Source: Hydrurus foetidus
Taxonomy: Eukaryota
Direction of reading: 5' to 3'
DNA length: 59,691 nt
Assembly: GCA_900617105.1 (NCBI GenBank)
Contig: UYFQ01000506.1
Span: 310,001 to 369,691 of the forward strand
A program made the position numbers and the translations under genes. The stretch's first letter is position 1; the number at the start of each line of letters is the position of its first letter. Below, piece after piece: positions 4,614 through 49,401 of this stretch. The notes under the pieces were generated by a model. The model did not search any database. It had not been told where the DNA came from and saw nothing but the letters and a program-made list of their open reading frames with translations.

Positions 4614-5057
4614 CCCTTCCCCCTTGATGGGGGAAGGGCCGGGGATGGGGGTGATGCGGCATGTCCGACAAGCCGAAGCCAAGTCACGCGCCCGGCGCGA
4701 TCCGCCGGGCGCGCAGACTGCGCCGCGACATGACGGTCAGCGAGAGGAGGCTATGGGAAGCTTTGCGGGCCTTGAACCTGCACATCCGCAGACAAGCGCC
4801 GATCGGCCGCTACGTCGCCGACTTCGCCCATCATGGCGTCAAACTGGTCATAGAAGTGGATGGCGGTCGGCATGACCTGCCCGAGGCGCAATTGCGAGAC
4901 GCCGAGCGCGACGCGTGGCTGACCGCGCAGGGTTATAGGGTCATGCGGGTTCGGGACCGCGATGCGTACGAATATCCGTACGACATCGCCGAGCGTGTCG
5001 CGGCTGAGATTCAGCGGTCACCCCCATCCCAACCCTTCCCCCATCAAGGGGGAAGGG
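4614..5057. mobile_element. DUF559 gene flanked by ~40-bp hairpin-containing terminal inverted repeats
   Basis: Left arm cccttcccccttgatgggggaagggccggggatgggggtga (4614-4654) is the near-perfect reverse complement of the right arm (5018-5057). Confidence 0.7.
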
Positions 5058-14785: not shown

Positions 14786-14906
14786 GCTCCTCCTATCCTG
14801 ACCGCTATCGCGGTCGTCCTCCCCCGGAGGGGGAAGATGAGGTCGGCGCGTTTCATCTTCCCCCTCCGGGGGAAGACGGCTGCGAAGCAGCCCGTAGGGG
14901 GCAAGT
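14786..14906. repeat. palindromic intergenic repeat (CIR/REP-like), family shared with 48590-48688
   Basis: Inverted arms cctcccccggagggggaagatga / tcatcttccccctccgggggaag; about 40 bp near-identical to 48594-48636. Confidence 0.75.
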
Positions 14907-16190: not shown

Positions 16191-16355
16191 CTGAAATCCT
16201 CTCCCAGAGGGAGAGGAGGGACCCGCCGCGTAGCGGTGGGAGGTGAGGGGTTACGCCGCAACCGGCGCGCCGGCACGCCGTCCTGCGTCCGTAACCCCTC
16301 ACCCTCCCACGCAAGCGTGGGTCCCTCCCTCTCCCTCTGGGAGAGGGCTGAAATC
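16191..16355. mobile_element. MITE-like inverted-repeat element flanked by an 8-bp direct repeat
   Basis: Terminal hairpins cctctccc-aga-gggagagg at both ends, long inverted arms; ctgaaatc at 16191-16198 and 16348-16355. Confidence 0.7.
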
Positions 16356-38547: not shown

Positions 38548-38862
38548 ACAACAGCTGGACGCGCGCCCCCGCCCTTGCGCCACCACTTAGCGGCCGAGCC
38601 GGGTACCGCGCGCAATCTGAGCGGATTTCCCTGAGCGGGCTTTCTTCGCCGCCGACCCGCGCCCCGTCGCGGGATCCCACCCTAAAACCCTTGGTGGAAT
38701 TGGAGCTCTGGCTGAGGGTCTCAGGCGCGGGGTAGCGCCCGCGCCAGGGCGCTGAGGCGCCAGCCCGGCAGCGACGGCCCCTTGACCGCGGGGGGCGATC
38801 GGACGGCCCTTCGCCGCGAGATTTAGGGATGGCGCCCTTCGGCGCGAAGGTGGGCGCGCTCC

Positions 38863-38994
38863 CAAGTCCTCTCCCTGAAGGGGGAGGCGATCACGAAGTG
38901 ATCGGAGGGGGTAGTGCTGCTGAGCCATTGCGGTCTTCCCCCACCGGCCCCCGATCAAGTCGGGGACCGCCTCCCCCTTCAGGGGGAGGACTTG
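38863..38994. repeat. palindromic repeat with terminal inverted repeats, copy 1
   Basis: caagtcctctccctgaagggggagg...cctcccccttcagggggaggacttg; inverted copy at 49256-49378. Confidence 0.8.
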
Positions 38995-39045
38995 CGGGGA
39001 TACGCCGTGCTCAATCCCCGTTCTTTTGAGAACAAACCCCAGCCC

Positions 39046-39107
39046 AATCAACCGCTTGTAAAATAGTTGATCGCGCCCATCAGACGCGCTCAAACCTCCC
39101 GTATTCT
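39046..39107 (+). promoter_or_regulatory. IHF-consensus site plus putative -10 (copy 1)
   Basis: aatcaaccgcttg fits WATCAANNNNTTR; tattct at 39102-39107; block conserved in copy 2. Confidence 0.5.
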
Positions 39108-39109
39108 TG

Positions 39110-39505
39110 TCCCACCTCGTCGCGAGGAAAGGGCGCAAGGCCAGCGACCATTGCGGCGGCGGGGGGTGATCGAGCGGGACTGGGGTCGAGGGGGATACTC
39201 GACCGGTCCGGGGATCCTGGCGTTGCAGGACCCGCCCGCCGTCGGCGTGGATGGGGATCAAGGCGAGTGTTGGTCAGGATTGGCCCCACGCCCCCCGACC
39301 TCCGGGACTTCGGGAAACCGAAGCTTCCGGGTTCCGGTAAGGCCCCAACTGGGCCACCCGCTGGGACGCTGATGGATAACGACCACGCGGAGCGCTCGGC
39401 TTCGTCGAAACGGTATTTTCTATCTCTCATCCGGACGTGGTCCGGACGCTCCGCGACCCTTTCCACCCCCATCGGCGGTTTTCCGCGCGAGGTGTGAAAC
39501 CGTGT
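39110..39505 (+). ncRNA. candidate large structured RNA, copy 1
   Basis: No credible ORF; conserved blocks and covarying stems relative to 48695-49130 (-). Confidence 0.55.
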
Positions 39506-39594: not shown

Positions 39595-40534
39595 CTACTT
39601 TCCGGCGGCGGCGAGCGCGTCCATCAGTTCGGGCACCGCGGTCTTGTAGTCGGCGACCAGGCCGAAATCGGCGACCTGGAAGATCGGGGCGTCGCTGTCC
39701 TTGTTGATGGCGACGATGATCTTGCTGTCCTTCATGCCGGCCAGGTGCTGGATGGCACCCGAGATGCCGATGGCGACATACAGGGCCGGCGCCACGACCT
39801 TGCCGGTCTGACCGACCTGATAGTCGTTGGGGGCGTAGCCCGCATCGACTGCAGCGCGCGAGGCGCCCACGGCGGCGCCCAGCTTGTCGGCCAGGGGCTC
39901 GATCACCCGCTGGAACTCTTCAGCCGAGCCCATGGCCCGACCGCCGGAGACGACGATCTTGGCCGCCGCCAGTTCGGGGCGGTCGGACTTGACCATCTCT
40001 TCGCTGACGAAGCGGGTCTTGTCGGCTTCCGCGCCGGAGGCGTTCTCGACCGGGGCCGAGCCGCCCTCTTCCGCCGCCGCAAAGGCGGTGGGACGCACGG
40101 TGATCACCTTCTTGGCGTCCGAGGACTGGACGGTTTCGAGGGCGTTGCCGGCATAGATCGGGCGCACGAAGGTGTCGGCCGAGACGACTTCCACGATCTC
40201 GCTGATCGGGGCGACGTCCAGCTTGGCGGCGACGCGCGGCGCGAAGTTCTTGCCGCCCGACGGGCCGGAACCAGGATCGCGTCGATAGTGGCCGGCCAGG
40301 GCCAGCACGGCGTCGGCTTGCGCCTCGCCACGCTGTGACCCAAGGCGGCGCTGTCGGCCAGCAGGACCTTGCGGACACCGCGATCTTGGCGGCCATGTCG
40401 GCCACGGCCTTGGCGTTGTGGCCCATGACCAGAACGTCCACGTCGCCCGAAAGCTTCAGGGCGGCGGTGACGGTCTTGTGGGTGCCATCGCGCAGGTGCG
40501 CGTTGTCGTTATCGGCGACGACGAGAACAGCCAT
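39595..40534 (-). CDS. etfA: electron transfer flavoprotein alpha (frameshifted)
   Basis: [44 protein letters not shown]. Confidence 0.97.
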
Positions 40535-44444: not shown

Positions 44445-46047
44445 TCAAGGCTGTCGCGTCAGCCGCAGGTCCTGATAGTCGAACGAGAAGTCGGCCAGGG
44501 GCGAGACGGCCCTGGCCAGGGCTGACCTCACGGCGCCGTTCTCGACGTCGAAGGTGATGAAGGCGTCCTCCTGGGTGCGGTCGTCGAAGACCGTCTTGAA
44601 GGTCTCGCCGTCGAACAGCTCCAGCCTGCCCTGCAGGGCCGGGGTCTTGTCGAACGAGACCGTCAGGCCTTTCGCCTTCTTGCCTTTCGCCTTTCCGATC
44701 GTGACCGTGCCGTACCAGGGGTCGCGATAGACCCCGACATAGGCGTCGAGCGGCAGGCTGGGCGGCTTGCCGCCGCCCTTGGGCGTGGCGGCGTCGGCGG
44801 CGTCCTTGGCGGTCTGGACGTCGTTTTCGGCCTGGACGCGTTTGCTGGAGGCGATCCAGTCGAAGTCGCTGCGGCCCTGCAGGCGGTCAGGACCGCCGTA
44901 GCGCAGTGCGCGCAGCACCGGGTTTTCCTCGGCGTTGGTCATCACCATGATGCCCGACTTCCGACCGGGCAGCAGGCCGGTATAGGAGATGAAGCCCGCC
45001 AGGCCGCCGGTGTGCCAAAGCAACCGCTCGCCGCGATGGTCCTGCACGAACCAGCCCAGGGCATAGGCCTGCATCGACGGACGCACGGGGTTTTCCGCCG
45101 TCGGGCCATCGGACGAAGACGTGATGGTCTGGGGCTTCCACATTTCGCGGGCGGTGGCCTCGCTCCACAGGCGCTTGCCGTCGGGCAGGGCTCCAGGGCC
45201 AGTTGCACCTTGCATCCACTTGCCGATATCGGCCGGCGTCGTATTGACCCCGCCCGCAGCGGCGGCCGAGGCGAAGCTGTCGTCAAAGGGCAGGACCGTC
45301 TGCGGGCCCATGCCCCGCACCGGCAACCCAGGCGGCAGTGCGGCTCGGCCCGGCGGGTCTTGTCGACCTGGGCCGGGGTGGTCACCGCAATGGTCATGCC
45401 CAGGGATCGAGAATCCGGCTCTTGATGAAGTCTTCCCACGGCTTGCCCGTGACGGCGGCCACCACCTCGCCGGCCGCGACGTAGAGCACGTTGTCATAGG
45501 CGTAGCCGCCCCGGAACGGGCTGCCGATCGGCAGGTATTTGAGCCCGGCCACGACGGCCCGGCTGTGGGTCGGGGCGGGCCAGATCATCAGGTCGCCGGC
45601 CCCGAGCGTCAGGCCGCTGCGGTGGACCAGCAGGTCGCGCACGGTCATCAGCTTGGTGACCACCGGGTCGCTCATCGCGAAGTCAGGCAGGTAGCGGGTG
45701 ACCGGCGCGTCCCACTCGACCTTGCCGTCCTCGACCAGCATGGCCAGGGCCGCCGCCGTCATGGCCTTGGTGTTGGAGGCGATGCCGAAGAGGGTGTTCT
45801 CGTCGCACCGGGCCGGAGCGCCCAGACGCCGGACGCCATAACCCTTGGCCAGGGTGATCTGGCCGTTCTCGACCACGGCGACGCCCAGGCCCGGCTGGTC
45901 GGGAGGCGGCCATGACCTGCTGGGCGTACGGTCGACCGCTGCGGCGACCGAGCCGGTTTCCCGGGCCTTGGCGGAGGTCCCGAACGCGGCGAGCCCGCCG
46001 GTGGCCAGGGCGGAAAGCAGGGCGGCGCGGCGGGTCGTGGCTATCAT
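44445..46047 (-). CDS. Tat-exported serine hydrolase (beta-lactamase family, DUF3471-like tail; frameshifted)
   Basis: TRRAALL signal, IASNTK (SxxK), YDN, HTGG. Confidence 0.88.
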
Positions 46048-46151
46048 GGTGCGTCCTTGGGTGCTGGCGCAGGCTAAGCTGATGCTCGCCGGGCCGACAA
46101 GGGGCATGAACGACCGCTCATCCCGGTTATCGCGGGAATAAGCGGTGCGGA

Positions 46152-47817
46152 TCAGTTCCCGCCGTCCAGCAGCCGCCTTGCGATCACCTGGGCCTGGATC
46201 TCGCCGGCGCCCTCGAAGATGTTGAGGATCCGGGCGTCGGCCAGCACGCGGCTGATGACGTATTCGGTGGCGAAGCCGTTGCCGCCGTGGATCTGCAGGG
46301 CGTTGTCGGCCGCGGCCCAGGCCACGCGGGCGGCGATCAGCAGGCCATGCCGGCCTCAATGTCGCAGCGCTTGTCCTCGTCCTTCTGGGCGCCGGCGAAC
46401 AGGTCAGCGGTCGTCCCGCCCATGGATCTCGGCGGCCCCATCGCCAGCTTGTTGGCGCGCGCGGGAATTCGAAGATCGCCTGGCCAAACTGCTTGCGGTC
46501 CATCGCGTAGGACAGGCCCACCTCCAGCGCCGACTGGGCCACGCCGACGGCGCGGGCGGCGGTCTGGATGCGGGCGCTCTCGAAGGTGGCCATCAGCTGC
46601 TTGAAGCCCTGGCCCTCGACCCCGCCCAGCAGGTTTTCGGCCGGCACGGTGAAGCCGTCGAAGCCCAGCTCATATTCCTTCATGCCGCGATAGCCGATCA
46701 CGCCGATCTCGCCGCCGCTCATGCCCTGGGCGGGGAAGTCGTCGCCGTCGACGCCGCGCGGCTTGGGGGCCAGCAGCATGGAGAGACCGCGATAGTCGGT
46801 GGTGGCCGGATCGGTGCGGACCAGCAGGGTCATCACATCGGCGCGGGCCGCGTGGGTGATCCAGGTCTTGTTGCCGGTCACGACATAGCGGTCGCCCTCC
46901 AGCGCCGCCCGGGTGCGCAGGGCCCCGAGGTCGGAGCCGGTATTGGGCTCGGTGAACACGGCCGTGGGCAGGATCTCGGCGCTGGCGATGCGCGGCAGCC
47001 AGTACTGCTTCTGGGCCTCGGTGCCGCCGGTCAGGATCAGCTCGCCGGCGATCTCCGAGCGGGTGGCCAGGGATCCGACGCCGATCCAGGCGCGCGACAG
47101 CTCTTCGGAGACCACGCACATGGCGGTCTTGCCCATGCCGCTGCCGCCATATTCCTCGGGGATGGTCAGGCCGAACACGCCCAGGGCGCCCAGCTCCTCG
47201 ACCAGCTCGATGGGGATCAGCTCGTCCTTCAGGTGCCATTCGTGGGCGAAGGGCGTGACCTTTTCCTCGGCGAAGGCGTGGAACTGGTCGCGGATCATCT
47301 CGAAGGTTTCGTCCAGGCCGGTGTTTTCCAGCGTCGGACGGCCGCGCGCTTCGGCCAGACGCCGGGCGATGGCGGTCTTGACCGCCTGACCGCCGCCCTG
47401 GGTCGTCAGGGTGACCAGGGCCGGGGTCGAGAGCAGGTCGAGGCTGGCGCGATCGGGGGTCAGGTCGCCGGGGCGGATGATCTCGCCCTGGTTCATGGCG
47501 ATGCCGCCGAGCTGGACGGCGTATTCGGCGAACAGCAGCTGGGCCAGCGCCTCGATCTGTAAAGCGGCCGCTGGCCTGCACCAGCCGGCCACCTGGTTGA
47601 GCAGCTCGGCATAGGCGGCGTACCAGCCAAAGCCGTGAACCACGTGCTGTTCCAGGTCGGCCAGCTTGCGATCGACCTTGCCGTCCGGCCCGGCGATCCG
47701 GGCCTTCACGACCGGACCTTGTCGACAAGGCCTGGGCGGCCGTGGCAATTCGCGCAGCAGGCCTGTCAGGCCGGGGAGAATGATCGAGCTGTTATCTTGA
47801 GCGACCGTTGCGGTCAT
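46152..47817 (-). CDS. mcd: acyl-CoA dehydrogenase, (2S)-methylsuccinyl-CoA dehydrogenase-like (frameshifted)
   Basis: N-terminal extension; VVSEELSRAWIGVGSLATRSEIA, FTEPNTGSDL, GYRGMKEY; ccr nearby. Confidence 0.75.
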
Positions 47818-47922
47818 GACTTGCTCCCCTGCGCCAAACAGTTGTTTTCTTTCACTCTGGCGCTTTTCGCACCTGCGAGCAATGCCGCAGCGCAGCATAG
47901 AGCCGCAAAACGGGGAAGAACC

Positions 47923-48549
47923 ATGCTGAAAGTCCACCACCTCAACGAGTCCCGGTCGCAGCGCATCCTGTGGCTGCTGGAGGAACTGAGCGTTCCCTAC
48001 GAGATCGTGTTTCACACCCGCGACACCACGACCCGCTTGGCCCCGTCGTCGCTGACCGACGTGCATCCGCTGGGCAAGTCGCCGGTCATCGTGGATGGCG
48101 ACCTGACCGTGATCGAGTCCGGCGCGATCATCGACTATGTCATCCGTCGTCACGGTGAAGGCCGGCTGGCCCCCGATCCGGCCAGCGCCGACTACGACCG
48201 CTATCAGCAGTGGCTGCACTATGCCGAGGGCTCGGCCATGCTGCCCCTGATGCTCAACATGTATGTCGGCCGGCTGGGCGAGGGCGGCGCGCCGCTGCAG
48301 CCGCGCATCCAGTCCGAGATCGCCAACCACCTGGCCTTCGTCAATGACAGCCTGGCCGGCCGTCAGTTCTTCGTCGGCGACAGTCTGACCGGCGCCGACA
48401 TCCAGATGAGCTTCGTGCCCGAGGTCGCCAAGGCCATGGGCAAGCTGCCGGAGTATCCGCACATGGCCGCCTGGATCGAGCGCATGCACGCCCGCCCGGC
48501 GTGGAAGACCGCCCTGGACAAGAGCGGTCCTTACGCCCTGGGTGCATAG
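47923..48549 (+). CDS. glutathione S-transferase family protein
   Basis: HHLNESRSQRILWLLEEL, HPLGKSPV, ESGAI, ADIQMSF. Confidence 0.95.
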   Translation: MLKVHHLNESRSQRILWLLEELSVPYEIVFHTRDTTTRLAPSSLTDVHPLGKSPVIVDGDLTVIESGAIIDYVIRRHGEGRLAPDPASADYDRYQQWLHYAEGSAMLPLMLNMYVGRLGEGGAPLQPRIQSEIANHLAFVNDSLAGRQFFVGDSLTGADIQMSFVPEVAKAMGKLPEYPHMAAWIERMHARPAWKTALDKSGPYALGA

Positions 48550-48589: not shown

Positions 48590-48688
48590 GCTTCGCGGTC
48601 GTCCTCCCCCGTAGGGGGAAGATGAGGTCGGCGCGTGTCAAATCCCCCTCCGGGGGACCCCGGTCGCGAAGCCCCCATAGGGGGAAGT
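48590..48688. repeat. palindromic intergenic repeat, second copy of the 14786-14906 family
   Basis: cgcggtcgtcctcccccgtagggggaagatgaggtcggcgcgt shared. Confidence 0.75.
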
Positions 48689-48694
48689 CTGGCG

Positions 48695-49130
48695 GACACG
48701 GGCTCTCAGCCTCACGCGGCATCAGCCACTGAAGTTGGGGAGGCGCGAAGCGGCCGGGGCGAACCCGGATGACCGTGATGTGTGTTTTGCGTTTCGGCTC
48801 GACCTGTCCGCTTCGCAGAAGCTGTTCTTGCGTGAGGATCGGGCCAAGCGAGCGTCTTTCAGCTCTGATACCCAAGAGCCCCCGTACGGGCGCGCACCAA
48901 GGTCGATCGGCTAACCGTCTCGACCCCCGACGATGCGCGATAGGCGGGTTTACGATCCCTCGCCCTGTTGCTCCGCGCTGTTCCTCCGACGAGCCTTCCG
49001 GTGGTCCCGGATCAATCCAACGAACAGACCACCTTCGTCCTCGCCGCGTGACCGCGCGGCCCCGCTCAGCTCCATCCCCATCGCCGCTGTTGGGCCGGAT
49101 CCAGGCGCCTCCCCCTGCGACAGGGACAGC
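48695..49130 (-). ncRNA. candidate large structured RNA, copy 2
   Basis: Same ordered blocks and stems as 39110-39505 with compensatory substitutions. Confidence 0.55.
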
Positions 49131-49134
49131 TCTG

Positions 49135-49196
49135 ATTATGCAGGCGGTTTGAGCGCCGAGGATTGGCGCGATCAACTATTTTACAAGCGATTGATT
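49135..49196 (-). promoter_or_regulatory. IHF-consensus site plus putative -10 (copy 2)
   Basis: - strand aatcaatcgcttg (49196-49184); cataat (49140-49135). Confidence 0.5.
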
Positions 49197-49255
49197 GGGC
49201 TGGAGTTTGGTCTGCAAAGAACGGGGATTGAGCGCCCTCTATCCCCGTGCGGCCT

Positions 49256-49378
49256 CAAAGTCCTCCCCCTGAAGGGGGAGGCGGCCGGAGGCCGGTGGGG
49301 GAAGACCCCTCCGGCTCAGCAGCACTACCCCCTCCGATCGCTTCGCGATCGCCTCCCCCTTCAGGGGGAGGACTTGGG
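49256..49378. repeat. palindromic repeat with terminal inverted repeats, copy 2
   Basis: aagtcctccccctgaagggggagg...cctcccccttcagggggaggacttg. Confidence 0.8.
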
Positions 49379-49401
49379 AGCGCGTCCCGTTCCCGTCGCG
49401 A

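Follow-up and report, generated by a model that had tools for sequence, protein, structure and literature searches.

A conserved intergenic cassette that occurs twice in a 59,691-nucleotide stretch of the Hydrurus foetidus assembly (GCA_900617105.1, contig UYFQ01000506.1, positions 310,001 to 369,691 of the forward strand; hereafter the window) is very likely the promoter of a structured RNA gene, and the palindromic repeat that stands beside it is almost certainly not a fixed part of the element. A GGGGAT hairpin, a site resembling the IHF consensus and a -10 hexamer lie at fixed offsets before the RNA while the repeat varies, and in a relative the RNA family as a whole is transcribed very strongly, starting just behind the -10. 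On balance we lean towards a mechanism in which the cassette is the IHF-bearing promoter arm of a multicopy structured RNA gene of Caulobacter and its relatives and the repeat an interchangeable neighbour. IHF would bind about 60–70 bases upstream of the start, bend the DNA and aid a promoter without a good -35. The RNA, whose fold is supported by covariation (a hairpin at the 5′ end, a long-range stem enclosing the variable middle, a junction in the core and pairing of the 5′ loop with the 3′ end), would form homodimers through a palindrome in its 5′ loop, each subtype best with itself, and would act as an abundant self-assembling scaffold for protein, not as an antisense RNA or mRNA. Spread and turnover of the copies would take place at the DNA level, through homologous recombination and gene conversion that link intergenic repeat clusters and shuffle repeat, cassette and RNA domains separately. 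Taken alone, the cassette is an ordinary promoter region, and its interest is owed nearly entirely to the RNA downstream.

Alignment of window positions 38855-39107 on the forward strand with 49135-49385 on the reverse strand confirmed the inverted pair of about 250 bp reported by the first-pass annotation; inverted repeat pairs within the window are 82% (I1) and 91% (I2) identical. The annotation had also described an exact IHF consensus match in both copies, an ATCAA..TTGAT dyad and -10-like hexamers shortly before the first stem of the RNA, and each of these is present. The IHF match, WATCAANNNNTTR, lies at 39046-39058 (forward) and 49184-49196 (reverse), two exact occurrences where 0.13 would be expected in the window and a count reached in none of 100 shuffles, and the dyad has a 15-base spacing in each copy. 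Including the A-tract and TTGAT, the predicted IHF sites extend over 39046-39071 (forward) and 49171-49196 (reverse). The hexamers occupy 39102-39107 (forward), where they mark a likely promoter without a canonical -35, and 49135-49140 (reverse), with the first stem 4–7 bases further on. Neither cassette copy has a -35 resembling TTGACA, and a consensus scan for sigma-70 promoters and terminators returned nothing.

Upstream of each IHF site, a GGGGAT-N12-ATCCCC inverted repeat (38996-39019, forward; 49223-49246, reverse) forms the left border of the conserved cassette. Beyond it lies a palindromic REP/CIR-like repeat of kind A (kinds A–E are labels of this analysis), at 38863-38994 on the forward strand for copy 1, with arms at 38863-38892 and 38965-38994, and at 49258-49375 on the reverse strand for copy 2, of which a different variant is found at the orthologous locus of G001, the genome nearest to the window and the one used for our census and orthologue comparison. 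Copy 1 is preceded by a remnant of a further intergenic repeat, the 'left block' (38802-38861, forward), a motif that is found upstream of many G001 copies and not at copy 2, and that often precedes the palindromic repeat. Downstream run the two structured RNAs, the only copies that our model detected in the window. Copy 1 (39112-39505, forward) comprises a 5′ hairpin, a core (39374-39466) with a G-poor linker (39414-39429) and a terminal bulged hairpin; copy 2 (48695-49130, reverse; core 48733-48830) belongs to another subtype and has a palindromic repeat of kind E, with no strand assigned, behind its 3′ end (48593-48690, where 48593-48656 is 88% like 14808-14871). Copy 1 is flanked by a DUF2867 gene on one side and the 3′ end of etfA on the other, and copy 2 sits behind a glutathione S-transferase gene. 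A coding explanation of the cassette was rejected, as frames across it span only 22–31 amino acids and longer overlapping ORFs are not common to both copies.

Several other features of the window were recorded. The etfA gene is split over two overlapping frames, 39595-40308 and 39920-40534 (region 39595-40534), probably through a sequencing indel, and 45394-48489 is a similar run-on frame. More palindromic repeats lie without RNA at 4614-5057, 14808-14892 and 16198-16346, two of them of kinds E and D. There are tandem gene duplications at 49398-49644/50478-50724 and 12887-13762/13911-14765, the first pair having no Pfam match and varying in number between genomes. Seven letters in the loop of the RNA's middle hairpin (39190-39196) are identical to the left border of the cassette (38996-39002), which may be chance, a protein site or a guide, and GGA occurs in several other loops of the RNA.

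A cassette search of G001 gave 40 scored matches among 56 candidates, and a search with the 3′ part of the RNA gave more: the RNA core was present in 53 of 54 fetched loci, and 52 copies were parsed, a number that is a lower bound for this genome. CATAAT or TATTCT stood at the same offset in all 32 copies anchored on TTGATC (30 from G001 and the 2 from the window). At 56 bases before the hexamer, 9 of the 52 G001 copies matched the IHF consensus exactly, 22 with one mismatch, 6 with two or three and 15 with four or more; the full ATCAA-TTGAT dyad was present in 23. The annotation's placement of an IHF-like site and a -10 at a fixed distance from the RNA therefore holds in most copies, with 31 of 52 in G001 within one mismatch at -56. 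In those 31 sites the four free consensus positions took 14 different values, with TCAA and the T before the purine kept. Across the family, 74 of 173 distinct copies carried a site within one mismatch in the interval from 75 to 40 bases upstream of the hexamer, where shuffles gave 1.4, although all our shuffle controls overstate because the RNA copies are kin. Family sites mostly lay at -56 or -57, a few others were at -68 or -69 or sat on the opposite strand, and 54 of the 173 copies had none within two mismatches. Both in parsing copies and in the 173-copy analysis, the -10 was found by a pattern that requires its A and T.

The left border of the cassette is sharp. Column conservation rose from about 0.4–0.7 to 1.0 at the GGGGAT hairpin in 35 G001 copies selected by this motif, and the hairpin was present in all 32 rows anchored on another motif, although it is reversed or missing in several RNA subtypes. 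We also noted that in some subtypes the IHF-like site is on the other strand or is displaced upstream by about 13 bases, and the arms of the GGGGAT/ATCCCC hairpin come in reverse order (L037, L038, L083, L148 and L199; L039-L043, L082 and L168). Judged from the sequence, IHF probably binds the predicted site upstream of the RNA. In the accessible text of a C. crescentus study (PMC11150451), IHF activates a promoter with a non-consensus -35 and ChIP-seq yields 430 IHF peaks.

The annotation had proposed that the promoter feeds the RNA, and in a relative transcription indeed begins just behind the -10. When run X24 was mapped on locus L168, from a record named Caulobacter vibrioides, 219,113 of 10,431,536 records (2.1% of reads) mapped at 88% likeness, giving a depth of about 44 on the cassette that climbed to as much as 168,000 on the RNA; read starts accumulated at 1233 and 1238, downstream of the hexamer at 1214-1219. 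On a second locus, L294, coverage rose from 0 on the cassette to about 100,000 on the RNA; there the reads began at 1295-1297, and the hexamer lies at 1273-1278. Read starts in the relative thus lie 7–12 bases behind the predicted +1. The expression level comes from one study and one unstranded run, in which the reads of all paralogues, with or without an IHF site, add up on one reference. In both mappings depth fell 30–40-fold at the linker, some 60–70 bases before the predicted 3′ end, either because the transcript really ends there or because the folded 3′ part was copied poorly. Two Ribo-seq runs gave a depth over the RNA of under 12-fold, mainly on the promoter strand.

The RNA is folded and 300–450 bases long. 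Its 5′ hairpin shows strong covariation, with G-U pairs that favour the promoter strand. The G-rich strand of the hairpin loop is complementary to a strand near the 3′ end, a pseudoknot-type 5′–3′ pairing (39126-39133 with 39457-39464 in copy 1, forward; 49108-49115 with 48737-48743 in copy 2, reverse), and a second long-range stem closes off a middle region that differs greatly in length and sequence among copies. When partner strands were exchanged between copies, none of 60 swaps reached the mean pairing of the own partners for any of these three helices. In the core, 97.6% of cells were paired and both sides had changed in 5 of 14 pairs on an alignment fitted to the model; on a free alignment the figures were 95.9% and 3 of 14. 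CGAAAC is near-invariant in the core, and the G-poor linker takes 139 forms in 172 copies, with G at 108 of 2,841 bases. This linker (39414-39429 and its homologues) differs even between near-identical copies, and it is where read depth collapses in both mappings. Single-sequence folding was weak (z of -1.93 and -0.96 for the two window copies) and gave other folds.

The 5′ loop contains a palindrome of at least 4 bases in all 173 copies, in 17 different sequences (39139-39142 in copy 1, forward; 49097-49102 in copy 2, reverse). It reaches at least 6 bases in 127 copies, against 36 when shuffled (a contrast overstated by kinship, as above), and is only 4 bases long in 46 of the 173. Since the loop changes in sequence yet stays palindromic, we regard it as a predicted dimer signal, and there is a reasonable case that the RNA would form homodimers through it. 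That the RNA would then act as a scaffold is a more tentative proposal.

Of 151 genomes of the family, 40, from 6 of 25 genera, gave matches to a covariance model of the RNA's 3′ core, with 1 to at least 28 matches each; five closely searched genomes hold 9–15 copies, and G001 holds at least 52. With few exceptions, the named records that carry the RNA belong to Caulobacter or Brevundimonas. Among 120 genomes from five other families of the order a broader model detected no copy, and outside the family two class samples gave only a weak match (E 0.0065) that on reading lacks the core; 28 candidates per genome were scored, so that remote kin may be missed. Phage and plasmid collections gave no RNA match, and a single pattern match on a viral contig was rejected as chance, as it lay inside a coding region. 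Inspection by eye revealed no hammerhead, group I, group II or RNase P motif. Neither window region matched Rfam at gathering and E-value thresholds, the repeats giving only sub-threshold, miRNA-type matches.

In the part of a C. crescentus ncRNA list available to us (PMC4117421, entries to CCNA_R0197), no entry overlapped in place and strand at any of four loci mapped by neighbour gene (bioB, parE, asparaginase and ketodeoxygluconate kinase), a comparison that assumes that the C. crescentus strain carries copies at those loci. The accessible sections of PMC11005374 and PMC11109978 do not mention such an RNA family. We found no published description, which the 2003 CIR paper, the 2008 tiling-array sRNA paper, subscription papers or bioRxiv supplements could hold. 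The family thus seems to be without an entry in Rfam or, at the four loci checked, in the C. crescentus list.

Comparison with orthologous loci in G001 changes how the window pair is to be read. The annotation had held the cassette to be better conserved than the RNA, which is true between the window copies (cassette 82%, repeat 78%, RNA 53%), whereas against the G001 orthologues the pattern is reversed, with cassettes at 83–85%. At the copy 1 locus the RNA is 94% alike and a repeat of kind B replaces kind A (44%); at the copy 2 locus the RNA is 96% alike, the cassette 85% and the repeat 70%. Because the RNA is kept at orthologous loci while the repeat is swapped or altered, gene conversion is the best reading of the likeness between the window cassettes. 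In five more genomes the element is absent from the copy 1 site, but the left neighbour there is different. The copy 2 site holds another RNA subtype in G123 and a truncated copy in G003, and is empty in G010, G011 and G005. For five further G001 loci, 4 of 19 orthologous flanks were filled and 15 empty, a count that leaves out two flanks cut by contig ends and two paralogous matches, and that may reflect gain or loss. The repeat is present at empty sites L318, L324, L328, L332 and L337, and L328 and L332 also keep the last dozen bases of the RNA. Most empty sites have a different left neighbour, and no clean insertion junction was therefore seen. The copy on the parE side is common to several Caulobacter genomes, as are copies by GNAT, Lrp-type and asparaginase genes (L049, L057, L084, L178 and L270), so some insertions are old and kept.

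The separate assortment of repeat, cassette and RNA domains points to gene conversion, with repeat clusters as landing sites, and we marginally favour gene conversion as the main route by which the element would spread. Neither terminal repeats nor a target duplication was seen in the nine copies inspected for them, the longest inverted match being 4–6 bases and the longest direct match 3–5. A different route, which we consider unlikely, is that cassette and RNA, without the repeat, are a non-autonomous transposon whose GGGGAT and terminal bulged hairpins are read in trans by an HUH-type transposase, with IHF bending the left end and insertion favouring REP-like repeats. The sharp left border at a hairpin, the hairpins at both ends, the lack of a target duplication, the repeats at several empty sites and a copy number from 1 to over 50 would all fit such an element. 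Against it, several subtypes lack the left hairpin or have it reversed, some loci are common to several species, and no transposase recurs in the top clusters of 999 ORFs beside 265 copies.

The same set of 999 ORFs, which we clustered before reading the top clusters, likewise contains no recurring integrase, reverse transcriptase or nuclease partner, and no IS110 recombinase, TnpB or IscB appears among clusters of three or more. Three copies (L008, L022 and L094) have a DUF559 endonuclease-like gene immediately upstream. An enzyme encoded elsewhere might use the RNA as a guide or template of the bridge, omega or telomerase-like sort, with the variable G-poor linker in that role, but we consider this very unlikely. 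The diversity and low G content of the linker, its position inside a conserved core with the near-invariant CGAAAC and the pseudoknot-closed fold are what such an RNA might show. However, the linkers match neither flank nor ends, as judged by eye, no partner enzyme stood out among the clustered ORFs beside the copies, the phage and plasmid collections gave no match, and the sole linked protein family is of 61–118 amino acids without a long form.

That protein family, of no known kind and about 90 amino acids long with an Arg/Pro-rich start, lies directly behind the RNA in 8 of 8 matches (L093, L094, L097, L098, L100 and L315-L317), twice in two genomes, and occurs in 6 of the 151 genomes, all of one genus. 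At 50% identity it forms 58 clusters, 57 of them of 61–118 amino acids and one an unrelated low-complexity repeat, and it has neither a Pfam nor an Atlas match. The protein may be a binding partner or cargo of the RNA. Other small, mostly basic ORFs lie behind single copies (L037, L078, L024, L070, L307, L025, L086, L087 and L090); those at L037 and L078 have a common C-terminal motif, those at L024 and L070 are homologous, and those scanned had no Pfam match. We think it highly improbable that the RNA serves as a protein sponge or as the long structured leader of a small-protein gene, comparable to type I toxin mRNAs, and that copies lacking an ORF are derived. The 8 of 8 association, the small basic ORFs behind some copies and the GGA in several loops speak for it, whereas the protein family is confined to those 6 genomes while the RNA is found in 40, no sense ORF follows either window copy, the proteins are not hydrophobic, and ribosome footprints on the RNA are sparse.

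In the mechanism that we favour, the palindromic repeat has no fixed place. Among the 52 G001 copies, the repeat preceding the RNA is of kind A (9 copies), B (12), C (7), D (8) or E (8); one copy has another hairpin there, and 7 show none of the patterns, one of these (L052) resembling a D variant. Kind A itself occurs at about 20 places in G001, 9 beside the RNA and 11 without it. The annotation had proposed that repeat, IHF site and RNA move as one module and suggested a genome-wide search for independent occurrence; such independence was found for the repeat, which stands without RNA, and in part for the IHF block, as some RNA copies lack the site. The single module is contradicted by five unrelated repeat kinds or none, by kind A without RNA at 11 of 20 places, by its replacement at the copy 1 orthologue and by the absence of the site at -56 from 15 of 52 G001 copies, and we regard it as largely refuted for the repeat, which likely serves only as a landing site. 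A mobile module that comprises the repeat, the IHF site and the RNA and relies on a transposase aided by IHF, as in BIME-1/RIB or IS ends, is the least probable of the explanations considered: the same repeat kind and exact IHF site in both window copies, a perfect hairpin that precedes 122 of 167 copies, compared with 33 for a control stretch, and site occupancy that varies between species accord with it, but the repeat is swapped under an unchanged RNA and the longest inverted or direct end match in nine copies is 3–6 bases.

More tentatively, and as a possibility rather than an expectation, Caulobacteraceae may have a class of large self-pairing RNA among their most abundant transcripts that was missed in C. 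crescentus because its copies defeat unique read mapping. Such RNAs would carry a subtype-specific palindromic 'dimer code', swap domains with paralogues, be expressed from an IHF-bent promoter and land in REP clusters without an enzyme of their own. A tractable host with IHF ChIP-seq, start-site maps and deletion tools makes the function, the predicted dimer and the spread of REP-linked non-coding elements directly testable.

Several known systems share features with the element. In E. coli BIME-1/RIB, an IHF site lies between two inverted REPs. The likeness to these that the annotation drew is loose: a REP-type palindrome does stand next to an IHF consensus match, exact in both window copies, but the site is not between inverted REPs and lies 52 bases beyond the right arm of one repeat, followed by the -10 and the RNA. 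IS110/IS1111 bridge RNAs and IS200/IS605 omega RNAs combine a mobile distribution, REP neighbours, a pseudoknot and a variable single-stranded loop. The RNA described here resembles them in all four respects, with a mobile-element-like distribution, but differs in having no recombinase, TnpB or IscB among ORF clusters of three or more beside its copies, a variable loop unmatched to the flanks (by eye) and an intact upstream promoter.

According to the accessible text of PMC2229807, Neisseria Correia/NEMIS elements are non-coding repeats with an IHF site, promoters, 24-bp terminal repeats and a TA duplication, and Caulobacter CIR repeats are two-armed intergenic palindromes of about 110 bp. Like Correia elements, the element here is non-coding, has an IHF-like site and promoter, and varies in presence at orthologous sites; unlike them, it has no 24-bp terminal repeats or TA duplication, and its promoter drives an internal RNA of 300–450 bases. 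The palindromic repeats resemble CIR repeats in layout, being two-armed and intergenic. Among large bacterial RNAs, OLE, ROOL and GOLLD are abundant and oligomerise, as described in the available part of 10.1101/2024.12.08.627333, and HYER1 and HYER5 dimerise through palindromic pairing, according to the accessible part of PMC12990946. In contrast to all of these, the family described here has no Rfam match, is smaller, exists as tens of mosaic copies and has no tRNA, phage or intron context, and its oligomers are predicted.

The closest parallel comes from Pseudomonas, the extended TwoAYGGAY RNA (RF01731), which the accessible text of bioRxiv 10.64898/2026.09.22.753630 describes as a multicopy, intergenic structured RNA with tens of copies per genome, strain-variable presence, a pseudoknot and REP arrays at a fixed position. 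The RNA studied here is likewise multicopy and of pseudoknot type, with REP repeats at a fixed position. It differs in that it has no RF01731 match, with 0, 1 and 2 AYGGAY words in 105, 55 and 13 of 173 copies, and in that it is longer, has its repeat upstream and of many kinds, and has its own -10 and IHF-like site and a palindromic loop. The family stands beside TwoAYGGAY as a second, unrelated case of a multicopy RNA tied to REP repeats.
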